A stretch of DNA of 64,000 nt from a virus: positions 32,500 to 96,499 of the IMG/VR virus record IMGVR_UViG_3300037961_005428; one strand, given 5' to 3'. Position numbers and translations under genes: made by a program. The notes under the pieces are model-generated. The model was not told the DNA's origin and ran no database searches. It worked only from the letters and a program-made list of their open reading frames with translations. Of this stretch, positions 3,930 through 33,911 are shown one piece after another; position 1 is the stretch's first letter; each line of letters starts with the position of its first letter.

Positions 3930-4230
3930 CTTGACTGGCTGTGTGAATCGGATGGCCCCTCGGAGGGGGTGAGGATGGTCGGGGTGTGGGTGGCGCTGCG
4001 GCAATCCCCGCAGTAGGGCTGCGAGTTTGGTGTCCTAAACACACCCCAGTTGGGTCAGCCACCTGCCCCATCCCTCCGGTATCACTCCGGTCGGGCGGGG
4101 CAGGCGACTGCCTGTCCTGTTCTTGGTGTTCGCCAAGTCGCTTTGGCATCTCAGCCGGTTGGTTCCGTGGTATGCACCCCACGGGGTGGCGGGTACGGGC
4201 CCCCACTGGCCACACATGTTTGAGTGTCTG
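3930..4230. other. GC-rich multi-hairpin intergenic region (candidate ncRNA or structured UTR)
   Basis: Stems cctgcccc 4062-4069/ggggcagg 4097-4104, cacccc/ggggtg near 4175-4188, gtttgg/ctaaac 4025-4040. Confidence 0.35.
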
Positions 4231-4233
4231 TGC

Positions 4234-4797
4234 TCACTGGGTTCGGACGAAGCGGAGGGCGGCTTCCTCGGTGTAGCCAAGGGCCACGAGGTCGTCCACC
4301 TTCTTGCGGATGTCATCGGGCAGGGCTGCGGTGTCGTGAACCACAGGCTTGCCGTCGGCGGTCAAGAAGCCAGCAGCGACTGCCTCCTTGATGCTCATGC
4401 CGTCGGGGATGTGGCCACCGTTGCGAACCTTCATGGCTCGGAACTCGTCTTTGCTGAGAAGGCGACCCTTGCCGCCCGGTGTCCATGGGTTCTCAGCCTT
4501 GTGGATGGCGTGGAGAAGCCATGCCATGTGGCTGCTGGTGCTCTTGGGGCCGTTGCCGAAGCCCGCTGAGCGAGGCTCGGTGATGGTGGCGGCCAATTGC
4601 TTAGCGTCGCCCACGACCAGTGCCACGGCGATGGCCTTGGCTGATGGGTGGCTGATGCCCAGTTCGTTCGCACGAACGAGCACGGCTTTCACCTGCTCGG
4701 TCGCTTCGTCTCGCTTAGCAGCGCTGCGACCTCGGAGGGCCTTGGCGGTCTGCTCAACGGTTGGCTCGGTTGCGTCTCGGTATTCTTGTGCGCTCAT
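4234..4797 (-). CDS. Ala-rich hypothetical protein (187 aa)
   Basis: ORF coupled to upstream gene; protein-like composition. Confidence 0.75.
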   Translation of the reverse strand: MSAQEYRDATEPTVEQTAKALRGRSAAKRDEATEQVKAVLVRANELGISHPSAKAIAVALVVGDAKQLAATITEPRSAGFGNGPKSTSSHMAWLLHAIHKAENPWTPGGKGRLLSKDEFRAMKVRNGGHIPDGMSIKEAVAAGFLTADGKPVVHDTAALPDDIRKKVDDLVALGYTEEAALRFVRTQ

Positions 4798-5294
4798 TGT
4801 TTCACTTCCTTCATGTTGGTTGGTGCTGGTGTGCTCGCCACGACTGCGGTCATGACGGATTGGAATGCTGCCTCTGCGGTCGTCATCATTGGCACGCCGT
4901 TCACGGTGGCATGGCTGTTGATGGCGATGGCTCGGTCAACAGCACGGCGACTCGGTCGGCTCAAATGCGTCGGTGGTTTGACCTTGAGGCCGGGTATGAC
5001 GCTGTCCGTGGGGAACTTGGGTGCGGGCGTGCTGTCGGCAACATGCACGAACTTGCGTGCGTTGGCTGCTTTGGCCTGCTCGTTCCAGTAGTCCCGCTTG
5101 TCGTATCGCTCGTTGCGGTTGGCCTTGGCGGTCATGGCTTCTTCGGTCGTGTGCTCGTGGCCGCAGTCTTGGCAGACATACACCGTGCCGTCGGTCGTGC
5201 CCTTGGGGTTGAGGTCCCCACGGCACAGACCGCCTCGGCGGTGTGTCTGCTCGCATGCGTCACGGATAGGCTTCAATTCATACTTGGTCTTCAT
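4794..5294 (-). CDS. Hypothetical zinc-finger protein; first gene of the leftward unit
   Basis: Start MKTKY after GGAGTGA SD; C...C...CQDCG motif. Confidence 0.7.
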   Translation of the reverse strand: MKTKYELKPIRDACEQTHRRGGLCRGDLNPKGTTDGTVYVCQDCGHEHTTEEAMTAKANRNERYDKRDYWNEQAKAANARKFVHVADSTPAPKFPTDSVIPGLKVKPPTHLSRPSRRAVDRAIAINSHATVNGVPMMTTAEAAFQSVMTAVVASTPAPTNMKEVKQ

Positions 5295-5433
5295 CTTATC
5301 ACTCCTGTGTATGTGTGCCCATCCCCACACCTTCGGGCTGGGGCGGGCACACCCACACCCCAGCGCAGGGCGGGGGGATGGGTGCACCGGCCTCCAAGCG
5401 GAGGGGGAAGGACATTGAGGGATTGTTTCAATC

Positions 5434-5443
5434 CTTTATAAAG
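5434..5443. promoter_or_regulatory. Palindromic TATA box CTTTATAAAG, probable promoter of the leftward genes
   Basis: Archaeal TTTATA consensus upstream of the first minus-strand gene. Confidence 0.5.
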
Positions 5444-5460
5444 AGAAGTCCAAAAAGGCC

Positions 5461-5960
5461 GACTCACAAAACAGAGCAGAGAGCCTTTACCCACACAGCA
5501 CAGCAGGGCTTTACGGGACATTGAGAAGCGGAACGCACACCCATATCGGTGGGGCTTGTCCCCCCAAACAAGCGACGGCGACTCGCACGGGGCAGGGTAA
5601 AGCCCTCACATCACAGGGGGCCAACTCACACACCACGAACCACAGCGGGGCGACTCACACGGGAGAGCCGTCCCCCTGTGCCAACACAGAGAGCCGACTC
5701 ACACGGGGCGGCGGCGAGGGCGCACGAGAGATTCTATAGACCGCTACCCTGCGAGGCTGTTAGCCCACCCCATGCGAGGCGGCTGGCCTTACGCACGAGG
5801 CGGCTGGCTGTGCCGTGTGAGCCGGCTGACTCGCACGACGCACCCCGTTCTATAGACCGTGCGACTGAGGGGCTTTACCCAAAACGGGCGAGGGCTTTAC
5901 CCCGCCGCCGCAGGGGGCTTTACCTTAGCCGGAGGAATGGCTTTACCCGCCGGCTTTACC
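5461..5960. repeat. Iteron-like repeat region at the strand switch
   Basis: ggctttac at 5871, 5893, 5916, 5939, 5952; about six (g/a)actc(a/g)cac-like copies in 5461-5837; tctatagaccg x2; gaggcggctggc x2. Confidence 0.85.
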
Positions 5961-6029
5961 CTCCTTTAACCACACACGGCGCTCCACCAAAATTTTGCTC
6001 ACAGGCTTAGGGCCCTAAAAATTTCACAA

Positions 6030-6060: not shown

Positions 6061-6324
6061 ATGGCTCAGCCGATGGACATCGCTTGGATGGTGTTGAAGC
6101 AAGAAGGCTATGAGGACTATGTGGACCCTACATTAGACCAATCCTCAAGTTATTATCCCCCAATCCAACCTTCGGCACCAAGTCCGGAGCCACAGGAGTA
6201 TTTTTCTTTACCTCAAAGCCCGCAGGCCCGCCTTATGAGACTGTATTCAAAGGCACAGTCTGTTGGCTACGCTAATTTGACAGATGCAGAACGGGACGAA
6301 ATAAGAGCACTGGGTGGTATGTAA
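6061..6324 (+). CDS. Leader-motif protein 1 (PMDIAWMVLKQ)
   Basis: Shared N-terminal motif. Confidence 0.8.
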   Translation: MAQPMDIAWMVLKQEGYEDYVDPTLDQSSSYYPPIQPSAPSPEPQEYFSLPQSPQARLMRLYSKAQSVGYANLTDAERDEIRALGGM

Positions 6325-6326
6325 GC

Positions 6327-6794
6327 ATGCATTCGCTTGAACAGGCTTGGTCTGTCCTCAAGCAGTATGACCCTCAGCGGTCCCTGCATGGGCGCTCGGT
6401 CATGTTTCCACAGATGCGCTCACCTACTGTAATAGTTGAGAACCGACAAGTAGGTCGGGATGGACTCCCTTTGCATACTTTGGGTAGAAACCGCGCTTCC
6501 GGCGGCTATTCACAGATGGACCCCAAGTACAAGGGCCTCTTTACACCTTATCACGAACAAGACCTACCGGGCCCGCTTCATGAAGTGAGGTTCCAGCATC
6601 AGCGTAAAGGCCGGAACCTTACACCCGATGAGCGGCTTGTCCGAGTAACGGCTGACCGCAACCAAGCGATTGACCGGGCCAACCAGTTCCACCAAGACCG
6701 CATTGATGCCATGCAGAATTTGCCCGAGCCCGGCAGTTTTTCACGGCCTCCCAACCCGGACTTCAATCCCTTCACGATGTCCGGTGGTCAATGA
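6327..6794 (+). CDS. Leader-motif protein 2 (SLEQAWSVLKQ)
   Basis: Shared N-terminal motif. Confidence 0.8.
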   Translation: MHSLEQAWSVLKQYDPQRSLHGRSVMFPQMRSPTVIVENRQVGRDGLPLHTLGRNRASGGYSQMDPKYKGLFTPYHEQDLPGPLHEVRFQHQRKGRNLTPDERLVRVTADRNQAIDRANQFHQDRIDAMQNLPEPGSFSRPPNPDFNPFTMSGGQ

Positions 6795-7762
6795 TGTCCC
6801 CCCTTGAAACGGCTTGGTCTATCCTCAAAGCACAAACTGAACTGGGTCAACATCACCCCGACTTCCCTTCTTCACAGGGCCCGGTGCTTGGGTACCACGG
6901 TCGCAATTTCTCAACCAAGTTCAATAACCCCTTTGGCAATTTTTACGACGCCAAGCGTGAGGTGTTTGATGACGACTTTGAGGCTATGCAAGAAGCCGTC
7001 GCCAACATCAAGGCAGCGCAACTTCTTCAAACGGGCCTTGTGCCAACTGACACGGCTGAATCGCAAGTCGGTAGTGGGCGCTTCAATCAATATGACGACA
7101 AGGGCGTACACAATTACGGAGTGGACACGAAGTTCAATCCCGACATCCCTGCCTCTATTTCGGTGGCAGTTGAGCCCCACACGGCGATTGGCTATGCAGA
7201 AGGTGCGAGAGGCTACAAGGACTCAAGCGGTCTGCCCGGCTTCTACGGGATAAGGGCTGGAGCCATGCAAAACGCTTTGCCCTTGGACGAGCCTTTGCGC
7301 CGCTACAAAATAGGTGATACGGACGATTTCATCTACAACAATCAGCGATACCGCTACATCCCGCACGGCATCGCTCCCAACCAAATGGTCCGCTTCGCTG
7401 ATGCTCAATCCATGGAAGAGTTTGATGAAGGCGTCACAAGTCCGTGGTACGGGCGTGAAAGAAAGCGTGCGCCTTCGCGCTTTATTGGAGTCGGCCCCGG
7501 TCAGTTTAGGGGTAGGGACCTTCAACTCTTGGAAGAGGGCAAAATGAATGTGGATGAGTTTAGAAGTCCCGAGCGGGACACTCAAAGGGTGATGGAGTCC
7601 GAACAATTCATTCGTGACCAAATTGCTCAGTATCAGCAACAGCAACTCGCCCAGCAGCAAGCGATGGCCCAACGGCAGGCTGACCAGCAAGCCGAGCAAG
7701 CGTTTAGGCAGCAACAAATGGCAGCGGCACCTCAACAACAACTTCCAATCGGGGTGCGGTGA
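6791..7762 (+). CDS. Leader-motif protein 3; possible ADP-ribosyltransferase-fold domain and Gln-rich tail
   Basis: PLETAWSILKA leader; YHG...GLVP...AIGYA...IPHGIAP pattern. Confidence 0.7.
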   Translation: MMSPLETAWSILKAQTELGQHHPDFPSSQGPVLGYHGRNFSTKFNNPFGNFYDAKREVFDDDFEAMQEAVANIKAAQLLQTGLVPTDTAESQVGSGRFNQYDDKGVHNYGVDTKFNPDIPASISVAVEPHTAIGYAEGARGYKDSSGLPGFYGIRAGAMQNALPLDEPLRRYKIGDTDDFIYNNQRYRYIPHGIAPNQMVRFADAQSMEEFDEGVTSPWYGRERKRAPSRFIGVGPGQFRGRDLQLLEEGKMNVDEFRSPERDTQRVMESEQFIRDQIAQYQQQQLAQQQAMAQRQADQQAEQAFRQQQMAAAPQQQLPIGVR

Positions 7763-7763
7763 A

Positions 7764-7775
7764 GAAACTTTATCT
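7764..7775 (+). promoter_or_regulatory. BRE/TATA-like element GAAACTTTATCT
   Basis: 23-34 bp upstream of ATG 7798. Confidence 0.5.
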
Positions 7776-7797
7776 CTTCGCCCTCACTGCGACACAC

Positions 7798-9000
7798 ATG
7801 GTCGCAGCCTTGGACGCCGCTTGGTCGCTCCTCAAGGCTTTGGATGAGCAGCAGTTGTACACACAAGCCAATCCCGGCCCTGCGGCACCAATGGGCTTCG
7901 GCGATGTCCCATATCCGCAATATGAGCAAATGCGACTCGGCACTGCCCATCCGGCGATATCGGGTTTACTTGAGCGTGTAGAGCACATGAGGGCCAACCC
8001 CTACTCCGGAACTCAAAAAGACCATCCCCAAGATGTTTACGACCCCGAAAAGCGGTTTGAAAGGTTTGGTAGACTTGGTGGAGGTTATGGGAGCCTCATT
8101 CATAGTTTTGGCAACCAGCCTTCTCTCCGTGTAGACTCGGGGCAACTGGCTAATATGATACAGGACAGTGGTATGCGCCATCACTTCGCTACTCAAACAG
8201 ACGAGGAAGCACTTAGGGAAATGCAAGACAACCGGCCAAGGCATGATTACACCCCTCTTCCGTATATACCACGAATGACGGGTAGGGCTGACCCCACAAC
8301 GGTAGAGGGTGTACCCGGTGTCAAATTCGGCCCTCCACCTATCGTTTATGACAACTTCCAAACACGGGATAGCGAGGGAAACTTGGTAACGAGATTTGGT
8401 AGCCAGCAAAAACACCCAAGGTATGATGCCCATTATGATGAGCGACAAAACCCATTAACGGGCGTCATAGATGATTTTGAATTTGGGCCAATTCAATTTC
8501 CTCAAGCGCCAATTCCGGGCGTACCGGGCGGCGCTCACCATCCCAGTCTTGACACACCTCCCGAGGTCGGTATGGTTGGACAAATAAGACCACAACACCC
8601 TTCCGCGAAAGCCTTTGGCGCACCAATCAATATCCTAAGTACATCTCGTGGTAGAAGTGGTGTTGCACAAAGTGGATTTTATCCCCCCTATAGCCAACAC
8701 CTTAGAGACATGCGAGGCCGTGGTGAAGACGATGACATCACTTCGTGGCACCTTTCCCGACAACCTTCTACGGATATTTACCAAGGACATGGTGGTGACA
8801 AAGTTGCCAACTTGCGGGGAGGTGCTGACCCCTTCCCGATGAAACAGTTGGGCCAAGAACTGGCTCAAGGCGCTCGTTCTCCCAATCGCCTAAGTAGGGC
8901 TCTAAGTAGCATTTTTAATCGCTTCCGCCGCCCTCAAGTTAATGAGCCTCAGTTTGATTTCGCCTTTGACGAACCACAGTATGATTTGAGGGGGCTGTGA
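7798..9000 (+). CDS. Leader-motif protein 4 (ALDAAWSLLKA), Pro/Gly-rich
   Basis: Start moved to 7798 on the basis of the motif and promoter; HPAI motif. Confidence 0.8.
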   Translation: MVAALDAAWSLLKALDEQQLYTQANPGPAAPMGFGDVPYPQYEQMRLGTAHPAISGLLERVEHMRANPYSGTQKDHPQDVYDPEKRFERFGRLGGGYGSLIHSFGNQPSLRVDSGQLANMIQDSGMRHHFATQTDEEALREMQDNRPRHDYTPLPYIPRMTGRADPTTVEGVPGVKFGPPPIVYDNFQTRDSEGNLVTRFGSQQKHPRYDAHYDERQNPLTGVIDDFEFGPIQFPQAPIPGVPGGAHHPSLDTPPEVGMVGQIRPQHPSAKAFGAPINILSTSRGRSGVAQSGFYPPYSQHLRDMRGRGEDDDITSWHLSRQPSTDIYQGHGGDKVANLRGGADPFPMKQLGQELAQGARSPNRLSRALSSIFNRFRRPQVNEPQFDFAFDEPQYDLRGL

Positions 9001-9004
9001 TAAC

Positions 9005-9634
9005 ATGAACCCAATAGACGCAGCATGGTCAATCCTCAAGGCTGACCCCAATCTCCGTATGGTGCACGGCGGCGTCTACCCCAACGCCCGTTTCGGTGGA
9101 CGGAGTCAAACCATGCACCCTGCTATCGCTGGGATGATGCAAGGTATCGGTGAGGGAAGAAGTCCCATACCGATGGAAGACATTGAGGGCGTTGATACTG
9201 GTTTTTTTGACACACACACTCCCGCTCGCTACCGAACTTGGCCCCAACCGTATAGTGAAGCACACGGCAATTTAGACAGTGGAGACCATCTGTACTCTAT
9301 GGGAAGCCTCCGGTCCATGGTCCCGGTTAGATACCAAGGCGCTCCCAAAACTCCCGACCGACTTCTTTACGAGATGTCAAAGGTTTCTCCTTACAGAATG
9401 TACGATACTGCAAACCTGCAACAAATTGATGACCCTTCTCAAAATGAAGAGTTTATGCAGGCTTTCAATGCCTATCCCGAGAAGTTGCGTCAATTCTATG
9501 AGCAACAAGGAGACATGGATGTGCACCCGCACACTGTTGCCCGAATAGCCGGTCGCCAAGATTACGGTCGTATAGGTCGCACGGGCAACCCCGACAACAT
9601 TCAAATGATACCCGACATGATGGGAGCGATGTGA
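9005..9634 (+). CDS. Leader-motif protein 5 (PIDAAWSILKA)
   Basis: Shared motif; HPAI motif. Confidence 0.8.
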   Translation: MNPIDAAWSILKADPNLRMVHGGVYPNARFGGRSQTMHPAIAGMMQGIGEGRSPIPMEDIEGVDTGFFDTHTPARYRTWPQPYSEAHGNLDSGDHLYSMGSLRSMVPVRYQGAPKTPDRLLYEMSKVSPYRMYDTANLQQIDDPSQNEEFMQAFNAYPEKLRQFYEQQGDMDVHPHTVARIAGRQDYGRIGRTGNPDNIQMIPDMMGAM

Positions 9635-9638
9635 TAAC

Positions 9639-10007
9639 ATGAGCCCAATGGATGCCGCTTGGGCGATACTCAAGGCTGACTTTTATAGCGATAAGCAACG
9701 AGCCCTTGAACAAGCCCTTGGTCCTGTGTACGGTCATGTAAGAATGGCTCGGGGCAAAGCACAAGAAGAAGCCGAGAGGATGCCGTACTCAACAGACCCC
9801 AAGGTTAGGGCAACACAAGGTCCGCTTGACTATCTGTTTGCGGGAATGGACATTGAGCCGGAGTTGATGAGGCCACCATCACCTTGGCCTAACCCTCCTA
9901 CTTACGCCGCTCCTCCGCCGGCTGACCCCGAGTTCATGGCTCGCATCAAGGCTGACGAAGAAGAGTCGCAACAGCGCAAAACCGAGCGTGAAGAACGGAA
10001 GCGTTAA
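9639..10007 (+). CDS. Leader-motif protein 6 (PMDAAWAILKA)
   Basis: Shared motif. Confidence 0.8.
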   Translation: MSPMDAAWAILKADFYSDKQRALEQALGPVYGHVRMARGKAQEEAERMPYSTDPKVRATQGPLDYLFAGMDIEPELMRPPSPWPNPPTYAAPPPADPEFMARIKADEEESQQRKTEREERKR

Positions 10008-10035
10008 GTAGGGGATGCCCAACATAGGGCACTAA

Positions 10036-10116
10036 GGGAGAGGCGGTACCCTCCAGTCGTGTGTTCTTTTGGGCTCTGAATCACTTCTCGCATTTCTTCA
10101 TTCCGCCGCCTCTCCC
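10036..10116 (+). ncRNA. Candidate small RNA closed by a perfect 11-bp stem
   Basis: gggagaggcgg 10036-10046 pairs with ccgcctctccc 10106-10116; TTAAGTA about 26-32 bp upstream. Confidence 0.35.
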
Positions 10117-10133
10117 CCCTTTCGGTGAAAAGT

Positions 10134-10268
10134 ATGCCACGGCGCAAAAGTCCTGCTTGCCCTTATTGTCAGCAACAACCTACTCAGCGACTGTACTCCA
10201 AAGCCGGCGGTACTTTGCACGGCGTGGCTTGGCACTGCCCCGTGTGCGAGTGCATGTGGAAACTTTGA
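10134..10268 (+). CDS. 44-aa zinc-ribbon protein (CPYC...CPVC)
   Basis: Hand translation MPRRKSPACPYCQQ...; GGTGA SD. Confidence 0.7.
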   Translation: MPRRKSPACPYCQQQPTQRLYSKAGGTLHGVAWHCPVCECMWKL

Positions 10269-10294
10269 TGTAGCCACCCATGCTGTCACGCCAC

Positions 10295-10687
10295 ATGGCG
10301 GATGCTATAGAGTGGTTGACCGACGAGGAAATCATCGGAAAGACCGACTGGTCCGATGTGGCGTTTTGCGATTGTTGCTCGCCACTTGAGATTTCTATGG
10401 CCGTTGTCAAGGCGAAGCGAAAGTCCAAGCCTTTTCACGGCTACAATCCAAACAAGCACGCCAAGACCGGTGGGCTGAACGCCAAGGGTCGGGCGGCTGC
10501 GAAGCGCAAGACTGGGGCCAATCTCAAGCGCCCCGTCACCAAGAAGCCCAGCAAACTCAAGCGAGGTAGCAAAGCCTCCAAGCGACGCAAGTCATTTTGT
10601 GCCCGCATGTCGGGTGTCAAAGGTCCGACCAGCAAGAAAGGTAAACTCACTCCCAAGGGAGCCGCTTTGAAGAGGTGGAACTGTTGA
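10295..10687 (+). CDS. Lys/Arg-rich protein (resembles DUF6321-type phage domain, from memory)
   Basis: GGLNAKGRAAA...RRKSFCARMSG; acidic leader ending CDCC...VVK|A. Confidence 0.75.
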   Translation: MADAIEWLTDEEIIGKTDWSDVAFCDCCSPLEISMAVVKAKRKSKPFHGYNPNKHAKTGGLNAKGRAAAKRKTGANLKRPVTKKPSKLKRGSKASKRRKSFCARMSGVKGPTSKKGKLTPKGAALKRWNC

Positions 10688-10878
10688 ACTGTGACTGTGA
10701 GCATTGCTTTGGTATGCAGACGGCTTGGGACCTTCTTGAGAAGAAATTGTGCCCGGCTGGTAAAGCGGCGGCGAAGCGGAAGTTCAAGGTGTACCCATCG
10801 GCTTACGCTAACGGATGGGCCGTACAATACTGCAAGGGCAAGTTCCGTGGCAAAAAGAAAGGGGGCAAAAAGAAATGA
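10675..10878 (+). CDS. Small basic protein with leader motif (MQTAWDLLEKK)
   Basis: KFKVYPSAYANGW motif common in marine phage basic proteins. Confidence 0.7.
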   Translation: MELLNCDCEHCFGMQTAWDLLEKKLCPAGKAAAKRKFKVYPSAYANGWAVQYCKGKFRGKKKGGKKK

Positions 10879-11423
10879 ATCCAATGGACGCAGCGTGGAA
10901 TGTGCTAAAGGCACTACCAAGTCGTGAAGTGGTGCAGAACAGATACCGTTTTACTGGACAAGGGCACCCATTTTTGGATGAAAAAGGTAATCCCACCCCC
11001 GAAACCAAAAGAGATTTGGTTGAGCAAATGGGGATTGGAACAAGGCACCCTGCTTTGAATCCAGCGCATGTCATTGAAAGCGTGAGTGGCAGACCCACCA
11101 ATATCACAGAAGGTTCACACCTTAGCCCAATAGAGCCCACTGACATTTTGCGCTATCCTACGGGCGACAGCATAACCGGTGCTGAAACTGGCAGAGCGGA
11201 GTTGGAAAACACGCGTCAACGACGAATTAACGAAAGAAGTCAACGCCGTTTGACGGGAAATACATCCCCTCCAAGGCTCATTGACCATCATCGTTACACA
11301 CATTTGCCCCCCGGCAACTACTATGGTGGCAACCTTCCAAAAAATAGCGCACTCAGCGACGAAGAAATGGAAAACTTGCGTCAACAAGCGCAACAGATGC
11401 CCTTTTCGTATGAAGGTCAATGA
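10875..11423 (+). CDS. Leader-motif protein (PMDAAWNVLKA)
   Basis: Start moved to 10875 (ATGA overlap); HPAL motif. Confidence 0.8.
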   Translation: MNPMDAAWNVLKALPSREVVQNRYRFTGQGHPFLDEKGNPTPETKRDLVEQMGIGTRHPALNPAHVIESVSGRPTNITEGSHLSPIEPTDILRYPTGDSITGAETGRAELENTRQRRINERSQRRLTGNTSPPRLIDHHRYTHLPPGNYYGGNLPKNSALSDEEMENLRQQAQQMPFSYEGQ

Positions 11424-11432
11424 GGGATAAAA

Positions 11433-11639
11433 ATGCACGCTCTTGAACATGCTTGGCGCATCATCAAGGGCAAAGAGGATGCTCCAAATTATCGCAAAGC
11501 CACGGGGCCAAAGAAGTGCGGCAACTGCAAGGCTTGGGATTCTTCAAAAACTGACGACCCTATGACGGGGTATTGTGAGTGGTACGATTTTACTTGTCGT
11601 GCCGACCATGTGTGTGATGCTTGGGCGGGGAAGAAATGA
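11433..11639 (+). CDS. Leader-motif protein with HiPIP-like four-Cys domain
   Basis: ALEHAWRIIKG; CGNC...GYC...CDAW. Confidence 0.7.
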   Translation: MHALEHAWRIIKGKEDAPNYRKATGPKKCGNCKAWDSSKTDDPMTGYCEWYDFTCRADHVCDAWAGKK

Positions 11640-12220
11640 GTGAACAGTGCCCTTGTTGCAGCGTGATGGTTGTCAAAGACCTTAACCGCTGGTTCAAGGA
11701 GAAGTGGGTGGATGTGTCTCGCAAAGACAAGGACGGCAAGCACCCACCTTGCGGGCGCAAGAAGGCCAAGAAGGGGAGCAAAGGTTACCCTAAGTGCCGG
11801 CCGTCAGTCAAGGTGTCAAGCAAGACGCCGAAGACCTCCGGTTCTATGACTGAGGGGCAGAAGCGTGCGGCGACCAAGCGTAAGCGGTCCAAGAAGCAAG
11901 GAGTTGGCGGAAAACCGACGATTGTCAAATCACTGGTGCTCAAGCGACCTGTCAGTCCCGAGGCCAAGCGTCACAAGTTGGAATACGACACCAAGTACGA
12001 GTCTACGCCCGAGCGTGTCAAGTATCGGGAAGAACTTAAGCGTGAACGCCGACATAGAGGTATTGACGGTAAAGGGGGTCCGGACATGAGTCACACGAAA
12101 GACCACACCCTTGTCGCCGAAGACCCTCACACCAACAGAGCCCGCCACTTCAAAGAGCGAGGCACACTCAAGGGCGACCCTATGGACATCGCTTGGCTCC
12201 TTGTCAAAGGTGAGTGGTGA
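11636..12220 (+). CDS. Basic two-domain protein with the leader motif at its C-terminus
   Basis: LNRWFKEKWVD...PCGR...YPKCRP; DMSH...NRAR (degenerate HNH-like); ends DPMDIAWLLVKGEW. Confidence 0.75.
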   Translation: MSEQCPCCSVMVVKDLNRWFKEKWVDVSRKDKDGKHPPCGRKKAKKGSKGYPKCRPSVKVSSKTPKTSGSMTEGQKRAATKRKRSKKQGVGGKPTIVKSLVLKRPVSPEAKRHKLEYDTKYESTPERVKYREELKRERRHRGIDGKGGPDMSHTKDHTLVAEDPHTNRARHFKERGTLKGDPMDIAWLLVKGEW

Positions 12221-12465
12221 TGACCGAATACCCCTTTGACAGTTGGGGCTTTCAGTTCGTGCTCACGCTGGACGACCACCTGCAAATCATGCAGGACTTA
12301 CTTGACCACTACGCTGACATCATTGACATGCTGGAGGACGCCTGCGACAACAACGATGCGTTGCTCGCCGACCTCGTGGACGCTCAAGAGCAATACATGA
12401 TTTTGCGACAGGCTTATGAAAAAATGAAACATGGGGGTAATTGGTTGCATGCTGAGTCCAACTGA
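12220..12465 (+). CDS. Acidic helical hypothetical protein
   Basis: ORF coupled to neighbours. Confidence 0.6.
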   Translation: MTEYPFDSWGFQFVLTLDDHLQIMQDLLDHYADIIDMLEDACDNNDALLADLVDAQEQYMILRQAYEKMKHGGNWLHAESN

Positions 12466-13573
12466 CGCCGCTTGGTCTGTCCTTGAAGAAGGGCACCGTG
12501 TGGACAAGGCCCTTCCGTTCCTCATTCCGGCGGCGATGTTAGCCTATGGCGGCTATCAAGGTGCGAAAAATGTCAAGGAAAATCGTATCACTGACCCCTT
12601 TTTAGGGGTGGTCGGTACCGAAGGCAATGATTCACTCGGTAGTAACCTTGCCGAGTTTGGGACAGGTTTTGCACAGGGCGTTGTCCCCGTCAAGGGTGGA
12701 GGCTTTTTGGCCCGGAAGTTTGGTGGCCGCCGTGCAGCAAAGCGTGCAGCAGCACGAGAAGCCGCAGAAAAGGAGGCGGCTGAGGCTGCGGCCCGCCATC
12801 AAGCGTTGTCTGCTCAACAGCGAAGGGGTGTGCTACAGCGGGAGAATCCCGAAGTTGGCTATGTGTTTGGTGAAGTAGCCCCTTATGTTTCTCCTTCCCA
12901 ACTTGGTGCTGTTCGCCAAACGATGAACGCTGCCCAAGCACGGGCTGCCCGGCTGGCTCCGAGAGCACAAGCACCAGTCGCTCCGTTGACACTGGGTCAG
13001 CGTGCAAAGTTGGTTGCAGCCACAGGCGCTGGTGCAGCCACTGCTTATGCTCCCGAAATTATGATGGCACTTGGGCTCGCTGGGAGTCCGCCCACCAGTA
13101 CAGAATTTGGAGGATTTGGTGCAACAGGCACAGGCGGTTTCGGCGCAGGGCAGGGTGGTCAACAGGGCTTCCAACTCGCAGGTCAACAGTCCGGCGGCGT
13201 TGGTGGTGTGCAAAATGTCGGTGTGAGCGGTATGGCTGACCACGACATTTTCCAAGGCAAGCAATTCCAGTCGGCTCCGACATCATCAAATATGCAAGCC
13301 CCTTCCATCAAACAGAAGGGGACCCCTATGTCGCTCGGAAACAATCTCATCAACTCCACCTTGAGTGTAATGGAACGCAACATTATGAAAGCCAGTGTGT
13401 GTGAACGCTGTGGCAAGAAAGGCTGCGTCAACAAAATGCACTGCATGGCGAAAGCCGATGATGGCAAAAAGAAAAAGCCAGCCCACGGCATGGTCATTGT
13501 CATTGGCTCCAAAGCCGGCCCGGGCCCGTCAACGAACGGCAAGCGGGACGACAAAAAGGACGACAAAGAGTGA
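12449..13573 (+). CDS. Leader-motif, Gly/Ala-rich putative internal or ejection protein
   Basis: MLSPTDAAWSVLEE...VDK|A; hydrophobic Gly/Ala segments. Confidence 0.7.
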   Translation: MLSPTDAAWSVLEEGHRVDKALPFLIPAAMLAYGGYQGAKNVKENRITDPFLGVVGTEGNDSLGSNLAEFGTGFAQGVVPVKGGGFLARKFGGRRAAKRAAAREAAEKEAAEAAARHQALSAQQRRGVLQRENPEVGYVFGEVAPYVSPSQLGAVRQTMNAAQARAARLAPRAQAPVAPLTLGQRAKLVAATGAGAATAYAPEIMMALGLAGSPPTSTEFGGFGATGTGGFGAGQGGQQGFQLAGQQSGGVGGVQNVGVSGMADHDIFQGKQFQSAPTSSNMQAPSIKQKGTPMSLGNNLINSTLSVMERNIMKASVCERCGKKGCVNKMHCMAKADDGKKKKPAHGMVIVIGSKAGPGPSTNGKRDDKKDDKE

Positions 13574-13665: not shown

Positions 13666-14202
13666 ATGTCAAGCGGTAGCCAAAGCGTTGACCAAAGTGA
13701 AATTCGGCTCATGGGGCTTATCCTCATGCAGTCGCTAAATGTAGGACTTGCCATCGGTGTATTCAACGCCGGCATTTGGATTGATTTAGAGAGCACGATG
13801 CTGAATGCATTTACTTATGCGATGGGTGCGTTTTTCGTCCAAGGCATAGCGTATTACTTCTTCAAAATGTTCTTCCAACAGGGCATGGACGACAAGGCTC
13901 GCCAGTCCGAGATGGAGCGAGAGCGGCGCAACCGCTACCGGGCTATGGAGATGACTTTTGAGCGCCGCCGTCAAGACATGGAACTTCGCATGCAAGAGGC
14001 ACAACTTGAACAAGAGTTGCGCTGGATGGAAAACAACCCCGGAAAAATGCCACCGATGAGCCTTTCTGACCCTATTTCGCTTGACACTGGCAACTTTAAT
14101 CCCGAAAAGGGCGATAAGACCCTTTCATTGGGTGTCTCCTTTGACGAGGAGAAGCCACTCACCAATCGTGGGGCTGATGGCAAGTTCAAGAAGAAGGAGT
14201 GA
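13666..14202 (+). CDS. Two-TM membrane protein with coiled-coil tail
   Basis: Two hydrophobic segments followed by an E/R/Q-rich helix; TTTTATT box upstream. Confidence 0.8.
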   Translation: MSSGSQSVDQSEIRLMGLILMQSLNVGLAIGVFNAGIWIDLESTMLNAFTYAMGAFFVQGIAYYFFKMFFQQGMDDKARQSEMERERRNRYRAMEMTFERRRQDMELRMQEAQLEQELRWMENNPGKMPPMSLSDPISLDTGNFNPEKGDKTLSLGVSFDEEKPLTNRGADGKFKKKE

Positions 14203-14444
14203 GGCCTGTGGGCTGGCTGTTCAAAACGCCAAGTGATGATGCAACGGAGTCAACGCTTCGTGCTATTCACATGGCGAACACTTTGGACACCGCTTATGAG
14301 CGCACATGGGGCTGGGTTAAAACGGTCATTTTCTCGTTTATCAGCGCCCTGTCTATCAGTGCCTTTGAGTATCACAACGATTGGAGTTTTTGGGAGCATA
14401 CTGTTAACTGGCTTGCCAACGAGGTTATGGGTTGGTTTGAATGA
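14199..14444 (+). CDS. Small single-TM protein (start may be GTG 14208)
   Basis: WVKTVIFSFISALSISAF hydrophobic stretch. Confidence 0.7.
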   Translation: MRPVGWLFKTPSDDATESTLRAIHMANTLDTAYERTWGWVKTVIFSFISALSISAFEYHNDWSFWEHTVNWLANEVMGWFE

Positions 14445-15157
14445 GTGCAGCAGCGGGCTCTGCCATGGTGGGTGGCGTTATTTTTGCCAAGGAACTTTAC
14501 CATTATTGGGTTCCCCGCAGGGTCGGTGTGTATGGTCCACCGCTGGCTGGAAAGACAACGCTGGACAAATACTTGACCACGCCCGGTGAAATGGAAGACA
14601 TTCCTCTTGACAAGCGCACAACTCACACAAAGGTGCTTGGAAAATTCCTTCTTCCCCGTGCCAGTCGTAAGCGTGTGAAGTACAAGGGTGAAACTCGTGT
14701 GATTCATTCCGCAGATATGGGCGGCGAACAGCGGTTTTGGAACCTGTGGGTGGACGATATGGTCAATCGGGGCGTAGAAGCAGTGGTGTTCATGTTTGAT
14801 GACCGTGCAAATGCAGGTGGAGATACCACCGTTGACGCTGTTGGCGGCTTCAAATTCTTGGTGGACGCTCTCATTTACCGTCAATATCGCTATAGAAACC
14901 TACGAAGTTGGTTGAAAGGCAAGAAGTACACGCCCAAAGTCATTCTTTTGGTTGCTAACAAAGCCGATAAGTGGTGGGATGAGCAGGCAAATACGCTGTG
15001 GCAGCAGCAGCGTCTTGGAGAACATCGCATTTTTGACCCGTTTCGGGAAGACCTTATTCGTCTACAAAAGGCCGGTATACCTACACGAAGGGGTATGATG
15101 GCCACCCGAATTGGCTGGAATGTGGAAAATACGATGGTGGATTTGCTGTCAACATGA
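14441..15157 (+). CDS. Small Ras-superfamily (Arf/Rab-like) GTPase
   Basis: G1 GPPLAGKTT, G3 DMGGEQRFWNLW, AVVFMFD strand, G4 LLVANKAD, G5-like MATRIGWNV. Confidence 0.9.
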   Translation: MSAAAGSAMVGGVIFAKELYHYWVPRRVGVYGPPLAGKTTLDKYLTTPGEMEDIPLDKRTTHTKVLGKFLLPRASRKRVKYKGETRVIHSADMGGEQRFWNLWVDDMVNRGVEAVVFMFDDRANAGGDTTVDAVGGFKFLVDALIYRQYRYRNLRSWLKGKKYTPKVILLVANKADKWWDEQANTLWQQQRLGEHRIFDPFREDLIRLQKAGIPTRRGMMATRIGWNVENTMVDLLST

Positions 15158-15168
15158 GGTGAACGAAC

Positions 15169-16152
15169 ATGAATGGATTACGACGCTACGGGCAGGTCCC
15201 GCAACAGGGAAATGGCAACTTATACGCTCTTGACGCTAATCAAATGGCGGCTTTGTCGCAACAAGGGAGCCTTTCGCACGAACAATTGATTGAAATGCAA
15301 GGTGCGCAGCAAGGAATGCGAGAAGCGGCTGCAAAAAGCAACATTGAGGTGCCAAAAGTCAATTTTTACCCCAGTCGGCACCCCGATTCACGAAAAGCAC
15401 GCAAAAAAGACATCAAACAGGCCCGAAAACTGCTCAAACCGAGCAAAAGAAGCATTTTCAACCCCTTACGGTGGGTTGGAATGAAGTATCGGTACAACAA
15501 ATTGCATGAAAGGTGCGTTGTGGACGGCTGTGACTGCGTTGAACTCATCAAATACGACAATTTGTATGCTAAAATCTGTGATGAGGACACTGGAGAGAGC
15601 CTTTGGGACCTTTATTGGACAAATCCGGTCACAGGAGAGGTTCAAGCCTTCGTAGCGGCTGAAAATGTCACTGATGGGCGCAAAATGAGGGGTACATACT
15701 GCCCCGAACACCTTCATTTGTACCATTTATTGTGTAAATGGGAGGATGAGAACGACAAAGTGCGCCTTAACAGCAAATCCGGTATGCGAGAAATGGTCAA
15801 AAAGGGCGTTTCTACGGTCGCTGTACCCATTTCAATGGTCAAAAAGAAGGACAATACACCCCAATTTTTGGCCAAATATGAGCCTTTTTTCAAGCAATTA
15901 GAGCAGGATTCACGCCAAACAAGCGGTATTTCCATCCTTCATTACCAAAATCCGGTATCAAAAATGAATGATGTGACCATGATTGTGTTTGATTTGCGCA
16001 TTTTTCAGCAGGAATTAGGTCAAATTGACCAACAAAACCCGCCCAGCATCCTTGATGCAGTGGGTAAAATGGGTATTACCCTCCCCGATTCCCCACCTCT
16101 CCAACAGGTTGAAGAAGAGAATGGCCCTCAGTTTGGCCAAGGGCAGGCTTGA
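15169..16152 (+). CDS. Hypothetical protein with Cys/His cluster
   Basis: CVVDGCDC...CPEH; GAGGTGA SD. Confidence 0.75.
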   Translation: MNGLRRYGQVPQQGNGNLYALDANQMAALSQQGSLSHEQLIEMQGAQQGMREAAAKSNIEVPKVNFYPSRHPDSRKARKKDIKQARKLLKPSKRSIFNPLRWVGMKYRYNKLHERCVVDGCDCVELIKYDNLYAKICDEDTGESLWDLYWTNPVTGEVQAFVAAENVTDGRKMRGTYCPEHLHLYHLLCKWEDENDKVRLNSKSGMREMVKKGVSTVAVPISMVKKKDNTPQFLAKYEPFFKQLEQDSRQTSGISILHYQNPVSKMNDVTMIVFDLRIFQQELGQIDQQNPPSILDAVGKMGITLPDSPPLQQVEEENGPQFGQGQA

Positions 16153-16166
16153 AAGCAGGTGAAAAC

Positions 16167-16796
16167 ATGTTATTCGGAAACAATCAACAGCAAAGCGGTG
16201 CACTGAACCTTGGTGCGCCAGCCAATACTCCACAACAGCCCTTCCAATTCGGTCAGCAGCCGCCCAGTGCCATGCAAAACTTTGGCCAAAGTGCGTTTGG
16301 TGGCAGTATGATGCAGGGTATGGGTATGAATCCGGGCATGATGCAGCAACCCGTGGCCCCGCCCAGTGAAACTGAAATTCAATTGGCACTCATGCGCTCT
16401 GTCGCACCTATGGACAGATTCGTGGCATCAGCCCAAATGGCCACGCTTGTGCAGATGCTGAACGACCTTGTTAGTTTCTCAGTGCTGGAAGTGATGAAAA
16501 ACGCCACTTTTGTCATCAACGAGGACGATGGTACCATGAAATTGGATGTTACTTCACTGCCTTCCAACCTTCAAACCATGAGTGCGGAGAATGTCACCAA
16601 TCAATTTAACCAACTTCAAAGCACCAGTCAGCAAAACATCCAGCAAATGGAGATGCAGCAGCAACAAATCCTTGCTATGGCTCAGCAATCGCTGATGGGT
16701 GGGGCACTTGCAGCGGCTATGGCTGACGAAGGTATGATGCAAAAGGTGGGTGGCGGAGTTGGCTCCTTCGCTCGTAGTATGTTGGGAGGACGATGA
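16167..16796 (+). CDS. Gln/Met-rich protein with amphipathic C-terminus
   Basis: Start at ATG 16167 after AGGTGA SD. Confidence 0.75.
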   Translation: MLFGNNQQQSGALNLGAPANTPQQPFQFGQQPPSAMQNFGQSAFGGSMMQGMGMNPGMMQQPVAPPSETEIQLALMRSVAPMDRFVASAQMATLVQMLNDLVSFSVLEVMKNATFVINEDDGTMKLDVTSLPSNLQTMSAENVTNQFNQLQSTSQQNIQQMEMQQQQILAMAQQSLMGGALAAAMADEGMMQKVGGGVGSFARSMLGGR

Positions 16797-16797
16797 T

Positions 16798-17049
16798 ATG
16801 GTAGATAGTGGTATACCGGGATTTTACTATGGCTTTGCCATGTCAACACGCGACATTTTTGCCCCAAAGAAGAGCGTCATTGTAGATATGGTGATGGTAC
16901 AGGTTTTGACCATCATCGTCACCCTTTCACTGGTGTTGTTGACGGGCTCGGGTAAGTTGTCTTCGGACACAATGGCTTACATGATGGGAGCCATGATGGG
17001 TGCGATTTTGCTTGCTACGGGGATTTACACCCGTATTTCACAACAATAG
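16798..17049 (+). CDS. Small two-TM protein (holin-like topology)
   Basis: Two hydrophobic helices; GGAGG SD. Confidence 0.7.
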   Translation: MVDSGIPGFYYGFAMSTRDIFAPKKSVIVDMVMVQVLTIIVTLSLVLLTGSGKLSSDTMAYMMGAMMGAILLATGIYTRISQQ

Positions 17050-17359: not shown

Positions 17360-18070
17360 ATGGGAGGTCGGCAGACCAAGCGTTCTTGCCCTTTTTGCCA
17401 AGACCCCGACCGTGACAAACTTGAGATGAGCATTGCTCAAGGCATCGCTGATGTTCGCACCATGGACCGCGATAAAGGCTGGCGGGCCAACACGGCAGAA
17501 CGCCACATGAGAAACCACGCTGGTGAAAATTTAGAAGGTTCCAACTATCGCTGCGTGATATGCACGGACGACCACCGAAGCATGTACGAAGTCGCTTATT
17601 TTGACGAGGGCATGACCACCGAAGAGATTGCCCAAGAGTTGAATTGCAGTGAGGCTACAGTCTACAAGCACATGAAAGAGCACTTCCAGCCCATCGTCAA
17701 GCAAAGTGCATCGGCTATTGTGTCCATTAAGGTGGGTCAAGAGGCTGATATCCTGCGACACAACACTGAGCGCCTCAATGAAAAGTTGTCTCGCTACATG
17801 GACGAGGTCAGCATCCACGATGACGGGGCTGTTTCGGACATGGTTAAGTTGAGCAAAGAGATTCGTGAGTCCATCAAGGACTTGACTTCGTTCCAAAAGG
17901 CGTGGGTTGAACCCGAGGAGAAAATGGTCGCAAACACCATCAACATCCTCAAAGTTGAAATGGCGAAAGAAAGTCCCGATACTTGGAAGCGTGTCAAAGA
18001 AGCCTTGCTCACACAGGAAGGCGACGAAATTGACATCAGCGGCATGTTAGAGCAGGAGGATAGCGCATGA
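17360..18070 (+). CDS. Putative terminase small subunit (tandem Zn-finger/HTH units plus coiled coil)
   Basis: Two CxxC...HTH...HxxxH units; helical oligomerisation-like tail; upstream of TerL. Confidence 0.5.
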   Translation: MGGRQTKRSCPFCQDPDRDKLEMSIAQGIADVRTMDRDKGWRANTAERHMRNHAGENLEGSNYRCVICTDDHRSMYEVAYFDEGMTTEEIAQELNCSEATVYKHMKEHFQPIVKQSASAIVSIKVGQEADILRHNTERLNEKLSRYMDEVSIHDDGAVSDMVKLSKEIRESIKDLTSFQKAWVEPEEKMVANTINILKVEMAKESPDTWKRVKEALLTQEGDEIDISGMLEQEDSA

Positions 18071-19119
18071 CCAGTAGCATGGGTACCGGCACTGACACCC
18101 GCATGTACTCCCCTCGGTCCGAATCGGACCACCTGTACTCGGACGGTGAAGACTACCGACACGGTAAGGGCTCGCCCGAACACGAGGACGAGATGAAAGA
18201 CAAGAAAATGAAGGAGAAGGAGGAGCGTGTCAAGACCCGTGAACTCCCCCATCTCAAGTTCAACATTGAATCGGCCGAGCAGGACATGGGTATGCCTGCT
18301 CCTATGCCGATGGACGAGCCACAAGAGGACATGATGGAAGAAACGCCCATGGCTCAGCAGGGTGAACTTAGCGCTCTTACCGGTTCTCCGGGCACCGGCT
18401 CACCCGAAGCCAGCATTAGTTTTGGTGCACAGGCGCTCAGCCCGTATGGTCAGCAGACCATCATGGCCAGCGAGCCGATGGACATCGCTTTCCAACTGCT
18501 CAAGCGAGATGGCGACTTCTCCACTCAGCCGTTCAAGGCTCCCCCCGGTGGCCGCTCTCGTCAAAAACAAGCAACATCCATGCGTGCTAAGCGACAGGCT
18601 CGCACACTCAGCCCTCGCACGGAAAAGGGTGGCATGGTTAATGCTGATAAAGCCGTTGAGATGTCTCACCTTGGCATTGATACCAAGCAACCCCTGCGTT
18701 TGTTCCCCGACAAATACCGTCAAAGCCTTGGTACTCGGGCCATGCAGGCCAATCGTGGTAACATTGCGCTCCCCTATCAAGGGCACAACATTGAGCGCCG
18801 CACTCCTTTCAAGCCCATGACCATGAAGTCCGAACTTCAAGAAGTGCAAATGCTTCTCAAGTCGGCTTCGGGCTACCTTCACCTCAGTCAATTGCGCAAC
18901 ATTCTGCGAGACTTGAAGCGAGCCATCGCTCGCAAGGAGTCAGCCAAGAAAGCGCCGCCGTCCGGCAAAGGCACTTCCAAAGAAGGCGAGGCTGGGCACC
19001 GTGATGGTGAAACCACTCAGCCCCAAGGGCGCACTGACAATGTAGAGGCTGATGAGTTCCGTTCTGCCGGTGCCTCCGGTCACCAGTTTGTGAGCAGGGG
19101 TAGCGGGAGGACGGCTTGA
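18067..19119 (+). CDS. Hypothetical head-region protein with internal leader motif
   Basis: EPMDIAFQLLKR separates acidic and basic halves. Confidence 0.75.
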   Translation: MTSSMGTGTDTRMYSPRSESDHLYSDGEDYRHGKGSPEHEDEMKDKKMKEKEERVKTRELPHLKFNIESAEQDMGMPAPMPMDEPQEDMMEETPMAQQGELSALTGSPGTGSPEASISFGAQALSPYGQQTIMASEPMDIAFQLLKRDGDFSTQPFKAPPGGRSRQKQATSMRAKRQARTLSPRTEKGGMVNADKAVEMSHLGIDTKQPLRLFPDKYRQSLGTRAMQANRGNIALPYQGHNIERRTPFKPMTMKSELQEVQMLLKSASGYLHLSQLRNILRDLKRAIARKESAKKAPPSGKGTSKEGEAGHRDGETTQPQGRTDNVEADEFRSAGASGHQFVSRGSGRTA

Positions 19120-21308: not shown

Positions 21309-22249
21309 TGGAAGGTGAAGTGTTGGTCAAAGCCCGCCCTCGTCTTCAATACAACATGAGTGGTCAGCCCAGCATGTATTTTGAACGAGACGGCCGTGGC
21401 GAAAGTGCTACCCCAACAAAGCGTGAGCGTTTAGCCGGACTTGCTGGCGGATTAGTTGGCGTAATGGGCGGGCTTACAGGTAAGCATCGTAGCCTTGGCA
21501 GTTTGTTGGGTAGCATGTACGCTGGCAAAGTCCAAGGTGAAGGCATTGGTCGTGGTCTTGCTGGTAAAACTGTTTCCCGAGCACGGCGTGCAGAATTGAA
21601 GGAGCAGGAGGACCGACTTGCAGCAGAGGCTCAAAAAGAAGGTCAGCGGAGATTTAGAGAAAGGCGACCAATTGGCATCCGTGCTCGCAACGCTCGCATG
21701 CTCGCTGCCGAAGATGAGGCGTTAGCACGAGCGGGTTCGGCGGAAGAAGAATTGCGAGCCTCGCAAGCGGCTTCTAAACGAATGGGTAAAATTGGTAGAG
21801 ACTTCCGAGTAGCGCAGAATAAAGCGGAGCGTAGAGCGGTTAGCCGAGAAGACATGTCAAGGGCTCGTGCACTACGGGGTATGAGTCCGGCGCAAATAGA
21901 GCGGTTTAAAGAACTGGACTCAGCGGGTCTTGAAAGGTTACAAGCGATTGCTGGCATATTGGATGAAACGGTAAATCCGTACGCTCAAATCAACCCAACT
22001 GTAGGAGAAATGAATCAGCAGCAAGTTCCTCAAGGAACAGTTCAACCGCTGCAATTCGGCCCGGGCGCTCAAATGACTTTGCAGGCAGGTGAAGAGATTA
22101 CACCGGAGCATGCTGACCACAATAATGAAGGCTTGACAACTCAACTCGGACTGGATATTGCTGACGAGCAAGAAAAGGAGTCGGAACAAACCATGGGGTT
22201 GGGACAGTCTGAGTTTGGTAACCTTTTGGGCAGGATGGGGCCACAATGA
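21308..22249 (+). CDS. Glycine-zipper plus coiled-coil protein, possible ejection protein
   Basis: Start MEGEVLVK|A; LAGLAGGLVGVMGGLTG. Confidence 0.7.
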   Translation: MEGEVLVKARPRLQYNMSGQPSMYFERDGRGESATPTKRERLAGLAGGLVGVMGGLTGKHRSLGSLLGSMYAGKVQGEGIGRGLAGKTVSRARRAELKEQEDRLAAEAQKEGQRRFRERRPIGIRARNARMLAAEDEALARAGSAEEELRASQAASKRMGKIGRDFRVAQNKAERRAVSREDMSRARALRGMSPAQIERFKELDSAGLERLQAIAGILDETVNPYAQINPTVGEMNQQQVPQGTVQPLQFGPGAQMTLQAGEEITPEHADHNNEGLTTQLGLDIADEQEKESEQTMGLGQSEFGNLLGRMGPQ

Positions 22250-33884: not shown

Positions 33885-33911
33885 ATACCATGACAAGTGT
33901 ATTCGCCAGCA

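Follow-up and report, generated by a model that had tools for sequence, protein, structure and literature searches.

Why should a run of otherwise unrelated viral genes carry the same short peptide, most often at their N-terminus? The question is raised by a 64,000-nucleotide stretch of DNA (hereafter the window), bases 32500–96499 of the IMG/VR virus record IMGVR_UViG_3300037961_005428, which is 96.5 kb in all. A first-pass annotation of the window had named ten copies of the motif, here called the tag, and all ten (10/10) were found on the + strand where it had placed them. Scanning the six frames of the window with the regular expression AW.[ILVM][ILVM][KE] returned 11 matches, every one on the + strand between 6064 and 12470, against about one that we estimate to be expected by chance. 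Over the whole 96.5-kb genome the strict matches numbered 12, with 12/12 on the + strand. The twelfth starts an isolated + strand open reading frame (ORF) within a minus-strand block outside the window (genome coordinates 15817–16620, L142), and this ORF had no Pfam or PHROG match. Nine copies open a gene, with Met 6–7 codons ahead of an invariant Ala. To the ten copies named before, a C-terminal copy at 12173–12217 and two degenerate internal copies can be added, SPLEISMAVVKA at about 10382–10417 and EPMDIAFQLLK at about 18472–18510.

The repeat is a feature of the peptide, selected at that level, and not of the DNA. Within the tag the third codon position is the most variable (entropy 1.42 bits, compared with 0.99 for the first and 0.43 for the second), the invariant residues are encoded by a free mix of synonymous codons, and no conservation is seen in the DNA ahead of the tag. 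The annotation had also described the sequences downstream of the motif, here called cargo, as otherwise dissimilar; this holds, since no cargo protein of this genome matched another by BLASTP at E<1e-3.

Among relatives, the consensus reads M-x-[P/A]-[F/M/L/I]-[D/E]-x-A-W-x-[L/V/I]-L-K-[A>M,Q,G], with Pro or Asp enriched at the next two positions. Its ending can be written L-K↓A-[D/P], the arrow marking a proposed cut and Pro or Asp being enriched at P2'. In 64 of 89 cases the start codon lies exactly 6 codons ahead of the invariant Ala. In five related records of 80–107 kb, the DNA pattern for A-W-x-h-h-K (h, hydrophobic) occurred 53 times on the coding strand and 0 times on the opposite strand, a reversed-pattern control gave 0–1 per record, and most tag copies sit in one array of 9–14 genes. 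Two pattern scans of IMG/VR, together with capsid-protein loci, yielded 107 loci with 347 tag instances, 341 of which lie on the dominant strand of their locus; 292 are N-terminal, 43 internal and 12 C-terminal. The first viral scan, run without an ATG anchor, included 38 chance hits among 61, and in the ATG-anchored scan 69 of the 75 new loci were related to this genome outside the tag or held at least two tags. Internal copies include the two in a single ORF of locus L139 and those of a 450-residue ORF in the head module of L077 (L077:12842–14194), which consists of two tag plus Zn-ribbon repeats. In the latter, a tag (STPFNDAW..K) closes each repeat unit and a Cys4 Zn ribbon comes after it, a polyprotein-like layout.

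To place the virus, the tailed-virus morphogenesis module on the + strand of the window was compared with known viruses. The module comprises a large terminase (22246–23748), a portal (25101–26849), an S78 (HK97-type) prohead protease fused to a scaffold-like C-terminal half (33897–35294; Pfam Peptidase_S78) and an SU10/HK97-like major capsid protein (35313–36485). IMG/VR contains at least 597 relatives of the capsid protein. It shares 31–33% identity with those of the haloarchaeal siphoviruses HVTV-1 (33%), HCTV-1 and HCTV-5, whose head modules have the same gene order as the window. A capsid protein 65% identical to that of the window is encoded on the 106-kb contig NODE_2 (L166) of the Poseidoniales single-cell genome AG-422-I20. 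This contig is magrovirus-like and of complete size, carries a 14-gene tag array and the small GTPase taken up below, and provides a direct single-cell link between the virus clade and its host. Given these haloarchaeal capsid relatives and the relative in a Poseidoniales single-cell genome, the virus is a magrovirus, i.e., a tailed virus of Poseidoniales, in the sense of PMC5434244, on the basis of its capsid module and host association. A DNA similarity search against cultured phages returned nothing useful, and neither the capsid protein nor the protease had a close solved relative among the sequences of the PDB.

The tag is confined to this virus clade and does not act as a sorting signal of the host. 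When the anchored pattern was run against 185,579 prokaryote species, with one genome per species, 42 single matches were obtained versus about 35 expected by our own estimate. The only array in that scan lay on the viral contig of 106 kb (L166) in AG-422-I20; of the 18 pattern matches in the 1.2 Mb of that genome, 16 fell on the viral contig. The HVTV-1 genome gave 0 matches to the tag pattern, and a crude N-terminal k-mer screen of low power found no analogous tag there. These three results, namely the near-chance matches in prokaryotes, the restriction of the array to a viral contig and the lack of matches in HVTV-1, underlie the assignment. The motif is without mention in the magrovirus papers PMC5434244 and PMC11706807, and a full-text literature search returned no description of it.

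The proteins behind the tag are diverse. The 252 unique complete tagged ORFs fell into 137 BLASTP clusters, 100 of them singletons, and the tag is far better conserved than any cargo sequence downstream. Cargo has a median length of 155 amino acids, a median pI of 5.3 and an Ile+Leu+Val content of 14%, with enrichment of Pro, Gly, Asp, Glu, Arg and Gln. Almost none of the 137 cluster representatives was recognised by Pfam, the single matches being to DUF6321, D12 methyltransferase, GP88, HD_4, ParB-like nuclease and Zn-finger domains. For the cargo of the window, Pfam and PHROGs gave only DUF6321, DUF5872, a weak DUF7140 and unnamed PHROGs. The cargo set also turns over between relatives, as the first-pass annotation had expected from a scan of related viral genomes: 4 of the 11 array genes are without counterpart in the array of L135 despite 90% capsid protein identity, and L135 carries tagged genes missing from this genome. 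One tagged protein of another locus (L196:7610–8527) is a D12-class (Dam-like) N6-adenine DNA methyltransferase with a DPPY motif, newly recognised here, in which some 35 linker residues separate tag and enzyme; it may be packaged and serve against restriction.

The largest cargo cluster, with 23 members plus 19 from a protein database, includes the window protein 6791–7762 and shows conserved blocks after the tag, including YHG[T]. When its profile was compared with PDB sequences, nearly all matches were enzymes of the ADP-ribosyltransferase (ART) fold, at weak significance. An AlphaFold2 (AF2) model of a compact member (L083:1909–2376), with a predicted local distance difference test score (pLDDT) of 83, renders the tag as an N-terminal helix (residues 3–19) followed by an alpha/beta domain, which Foldseek and VIA-align placed in the ART superfamily. 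The best VIA match was the NAD-binding lobe of Tpt1/KptA (Z 10.9, root-mean-square deviation 2.3 Å over 84 residues), and the next were Rhs ART toxins, exotoxin A, Arr and pertussis toxin. The model thus predicts an ART fold for the family, including the window protein, which is 31% identical to the modelled member; this assignment is new here. The catalytic residues to look for in ART enzymes are H-Y-E or R-S-E. In most family members, the window protein among them, the first block is YHG[T/R], and some subfamilies have YRG instead. The window protein lacks the second aromatic residue and the Glu conserved in IPPE, reading ISVAV and APNQ. Because YHG is retained and later conserved positions are lost, its activity is uncertain. 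Pfam PF01885 had no match in this genome.

What, then, could read such a label? The best reading in our analysis, to which we give about an even chance, is that the tag targets proteins to the capsid and is cleaved by the S78 protease. The tag would be a modular address label of 12 residues, forming a short amphipathic helix with a hydrophobic face of F/M, A, W and L and ending in L-K, then Ala, often Pro or Asp. This helix would dock the tagged protein to the core of the assembling procapsid, most simply to the scaffold half of the protease–scaffold fusion, an arrangement that would place docked tags beside the active site. The prohead protease would then cut after Lys, as it would in the capsid protein at ELLK↓AD. 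Once freed, the cargo would remain in the head with the DNA and enter the Poseidoniales host at infection, and internal tags in polyprotein-like ORFs would serve as extra cutting and docking points.

Several observations favor capsid targeting. The arrays open the + strand block that holds all structural genes, and they do so in tight operons. An ORF in the head module of L077 carries tags together with Zn-ribbon repeats, and the L139 ORF carries two tags. The cargo, with its predicted ART fold, Dam-like methyltransferase, basic DNA-binding-like proteins and Zn ribbons, resembles the packaged and injected proteins of T4 and P1. The tag ending L-K↓A-[D/P] further resembles the proposed maturation site of the capsid protein, ELLK↓ADAP (residues 31–38), which is invariant in 79 relatives and preceded by a more variable N-terminus of 30 residues. 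The K-A-D of this site aligns with that of HVTV-1 (MSK↓ADN), where LRK↓ADG also occurs further upstream.

Other results weigh against capsid targeting with cleavage. The likeness to the capsid site, already noted in the first-pass annotation, is limited to five residues, L-L-K-A-D. Counts of h-h-K or h-K-[A/S/G] in the scaffold, capsid, portal and giant proteins were not above those in shuffled sequences. HVTV-1 has a homologous capsid protein and protease–scaffold fusion, yet no tag. An AF2 model of the capsid protein built with 18 close homologs reached a pLDDT of 31, at which the position of K34 relative to the HK97 fold is unreadable. Some tags are C-terminal, where a cut after Lys would take off only 2–4 residues, and a few carry Glu instead of Lys. 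In view of these two kinds of tag, docking, not cutting, would have to be the primary role, and the invariant Asp, Ala and Trp point to a specific binding partner. Of the capsid-targeting and cleavage system put forward in the first-pass annotation, the modular N-terminal virus-specific tag, the turnover of cargo and the likeness of site and cargo are thus retained, and the part that concerns cleavage and the reader is weakened by the unenriched Lys↓small sites, the untagged HVTV-1 and a rival reader in a neighboring GTPase operon. Separately, ATFRILKE in the protease was considered as a self-cleavage site and rejected; the protease–scaffold alignment showed that it lies in the conserved protease domain, so it is not evidence of self-cleavage.

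The comparison with T4 is instructive for both likeness and difference. According to PMC9024508, T4 packages the ADP-ribosyltransferase Alt and internal proteins by means of a short N-terminal capsid-targeting sequence (CTS), which the prohead protease removes. On the same account (IPI–III and Alt; Mullaney & Black 1996, cited in PMC9024508), the CTS is, like the tag, a short modular N-terminal peptide on unrelated proteins. The CTS ends in a motif resembling the site of the head protease, and the ending of the tag may do so too. The Alt cargo is an ADP-ribosyltransferase, to be compared with the predicted ART-fold family here, and both systems include small DNA-associated proteins. In contrast, the T4 CTS MKTYQEFIAE shows no similarity to the magrovirus consensus, the cut, after Glu in T4, is proposed to fall after Lys in the magrovirus, and the protease is of the S78 (HK97) type here and of the gp21 type in T4. 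Also unlike T4, the magroviruses have 10–17 tagged genes per genome in one array, with internal and C-terminal copies in addition, and an archaeal host.

Phage P1 offers a second precedent: its methyltransferase-bearing DarB is packaged via its first 30 residues (PMC12810830). Much as proposed for the tag, an N-terminal signal of at most 30 residues sends an anti-restriction, methyltransferase-containing protein into the head, and the prohead protease trims DarA as well as the capsid protein. Unlike the magrovirus tag, the P1 signal has no consensus common to many genes, and packaging needs DarA, Hdf and other Dar proteins. In phiKZ and SPN3US, which are giant phages, the prohead protease removes propeptides from many proteins inside the head, as would be the case here, and a bolus of ejected proteins is present (PMC5694885, PMC10052503). 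There, however, the shared element is a short cleavage motif, x-x-E, whereas the tag is a long N-terminal helix that hardly varies and keeps its position. The ART-fold family and the Dam-like methyltransferase recall T4 Alt and P1 DarB, both packaged and injected. Because protease family, motif and host domain all differ, the archaeal-virus tag does not belong to the T4 CTS family; in mechanism the nearest likeness would be to the targeting and trimming of T4 and P1, for which we see the chances as evenly balanced.

Among the alternatives, an unlikely one is that the tag is never cleaved and acts as a permanent docking plug, attaching interchangeable proteins to one virion socket (the inner capsid wall, the portal, the tail or a decoration site) or to one multiprotein complex. 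Such a plug would explain why the conserved part, at 11 residues including Trp, exceeds what a cleavage site requires, and why the tag is found in internal and C-terminal as well as N-terminal positions. The N-terminal anchors of phage receptor-binding proteins work in this way, as do the cargo-loading peptides of encapsulins, which are short and dock unrelated cargo inside an HK97-fold shell from either terminus, as the tag would. Encapsulin peptides, unlike the tag, are usually C-terminal, follow another consensus, stay uncleaved and belong to cellular compartments, not viruses. An encapsulin cargo-loading peptide as such was ruled out, since 292 of 347 tags are N-terminal, the consensus is different and the genome is that of a tailed virus with terminase and portal. 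A plug would leave unexplained the match of Lys-Ala-then-Pro/Asp to ELLK↓AD of the capsid protein. The cargo, moreover, is mostly short and rich in Pro, Gly and Gln with few hydrophobic residues, unlike fibres or decoration proteins, and its enzymes suggest delivery.

The second alternative takes the reader of the tag from the genes next to the array. An operon of membrane proteins and a small GTPase (13666..17049, + strand) lies directly downstream; its GTPase has a P-loop, a DMGGEQRFW switch II and NKAD, and is unrecognised by Pfam. A leader peptide with its own maturase, as in RiPP-like or radical-SAM tag systems, would have a conserved modifying enzyme encoded next to the tagged genes; the conserved neighbors here match no Pfam enzyme family, and the array showed neither a radical-SAM nor a peptidase gene. 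The GTPase and the membrane proteins are candidate tag readers. The helix might then recruit proteins to a membrane or transport structure built by the virus, serving egress, a replication compartment or export instead of the capsid. N-terminal amphipathic helices are common as membrane or GTPase-effector anchors, and the operon directly follows the array in 11 loci. It was present in 7/7 tag-bearing genomes checked, down to 38% identity, and absent from the tagless HVTV-1, so its phyletic pattern fits the tag as well as that of the protease does, which counts against capsid targeting. Synteny inside one virus clade is nevertheless no proof of a functional link, and co-inheritance holds to the same degree for the capsid protein and the protease. 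A generic membrane helix would not usually keep Asp, Ala, Trp and Lys near-invariant, tags occur in an ORF within the head module (L077), and it is hard to see what an ART enzyme, a DNA methyltransferase or basic DNA-binding-like proteins would do at a membrane. On this balance we regard the operon as a rather improbable reader.

Still less probable is that the tag is a short linear motif for a host hub, such as RNA polymerase, the chaperonin or the proteasome system, and that the cargo consists of unpackaged takeover factors. Viruses often engage host hubs through short motifs, and the cargo includes enzymes able to modify host targets. The arrays, though, are co-oriented with the structural genes and stand at their head in tight operons, the host genome does not use the motif, and this reading would not explain why the tag keeps a set distance from the start codon or why it ends like a cleavage site. 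Finally, that the tag has no address function and is all that remains of a shared ancestry in a paralogous family that evolves fast is hardly credible: some cargo clusters are paralogous within a genome (7–23 members), but the tag heads different folds and families (ART, D12 methyltransferase, DUF6321, DUF5872, HD, ParB-like, Zn ribbons), occurs internally and C-terminally as well, and outlasts the sequence downstream of it by far in conservation.

The array itself, on the + strand throughout, begins with a gene of 87 amino acids (6061..6324) with the N-terminus MAQPMDIAWMVLKQ and a Pro/Gln/Ser-rich cargo of no family. A gene of 155 amino acids (6327..6794; MHSLEQAWSVLKQ) follows, which has an ortholog in L135. 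The third tagged gene (6791..7762; 323 amino acids; MMSPLETAWSILKA) is the member of the largest cargo family, with a predicted Tpt1/KptA-like ART fold, and has a Gln-rich tail. The fourth encodes 400 amino acids from the ATG at 7798 (7798..9000; MVAALDAAWSLLKA) and belongs to no family; the fifth (9005..9634) and the sixth (9639..10007) encode 209 and 122 amino acids and carry MNPIDAAWSILKADP and MSPMDAAWAILKADF, respectively. Next is a basic DUF6321 protein (10280..10687), whose degenerate internal tag reads CDCCSPLEISMAVVKA and whose L135 ortholog has SPMDNAFALMKA. A small basic protein (10675..10878; phrog_27331, weak DUF5872) carries the tag GMQTAWDLLEK after a CDCEHC stretch, the CxCxxC segment ahead of the tag spanning 13 residues.

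In the second half of the array, a gene of 182 amino acids (10875..11423; MNPMDAAWNVLKA) precedes one for a small Cys-rich protein of 68 amino acids (11433..11639; MHALEHAWRIIKG; weak DUF7140). The basic DUF5872/phrog_6437 protein at 11621..12220 ends in the C-terminal tag, DPMDIAWLLVKGEW directly followed by the stop codon, and in L135 this tag is internal to a fusion of 426 amino acids. An untagged acidic gene lies inside the array (12220..12465), joined through an ATGA stop–start overlap. The last gene, from the ATG at 12449 (12449..13573), has MLSPTDAAWSVLEE, in which Glu replaces Lys, and a hydrophobic segment comes next. Beyond the GTPase operon, a disordered protein of 350 amino acids (18067..19119, + strand) holds the degenerate internal copy EPMDIAFQLLK; its relatives have GEPMDLAWRLLK once or twice within larger ORFs. 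Scans of the array for sigma-70 promoters, terminators and tRNAs were uninformative.

Some further features of the window were recorded. Between the minus-strand block and the array, positions 4001–6000 have a guanine-plus-cytosine content of 0.62 versus about 0.52 elsewhere; long ORFs overlap there on both strands, with no clear gene. The terminase–portal interval contains an ORF (23803–25119) with an HNH endonuclease match (phrog_5046), and the HVTV-1 terminase is likewise flanked by HNH genes. A giant ORF of 1943 amino acids (28053–33884) lies between portal and protease, and in the equivalent place HVTV-1 has ORFs of 1048 and 1313 amino acids. A second giant ORF (49122–63998), of more than 4959 amino acids, continues past the end of the window.

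Together, our results would be compatible with a delivery system for effectors that could be read from sequence and programmed, in which any protein beginning with M-x-[P/A]-h-[D/E]-x-A-W-x-h-L-K would be docked to the procapsid core, trimmed after Lys by the HK97-type protease and injected along with the DNA; we consider this general form plausible, at somewhat less than an even chance. If it is true, the injected proteome, comprising ART-fold enzymes, DNA methyltransferases, nuclease-like and DNA-coating proteins, would be readable from metagenomes alone, and the set of injected proteins would turn over fast between near-identical viruses. Capsid targeting in an archaeal virus with an HK97-type protease would here have a testable case. 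If this is confirmed, engineers could use the tag as a signal for encapsidation, and injected effectors could be sought with it in metagenomes and metaproteomes from the sea. Magroviruses are among the most abundant archaeal viruses of the surface ocean; they are uncultured, and nearly all of their non-hallmark genes are unannotated. A clade-wide tag on 10–17 genes per genome provides a functional handle on much of this dark matter, and it would predict which proteins enter Poseidoniales with the DNA, including candidate host-modifying ART enzymes and anti-restriction methyltransferases.

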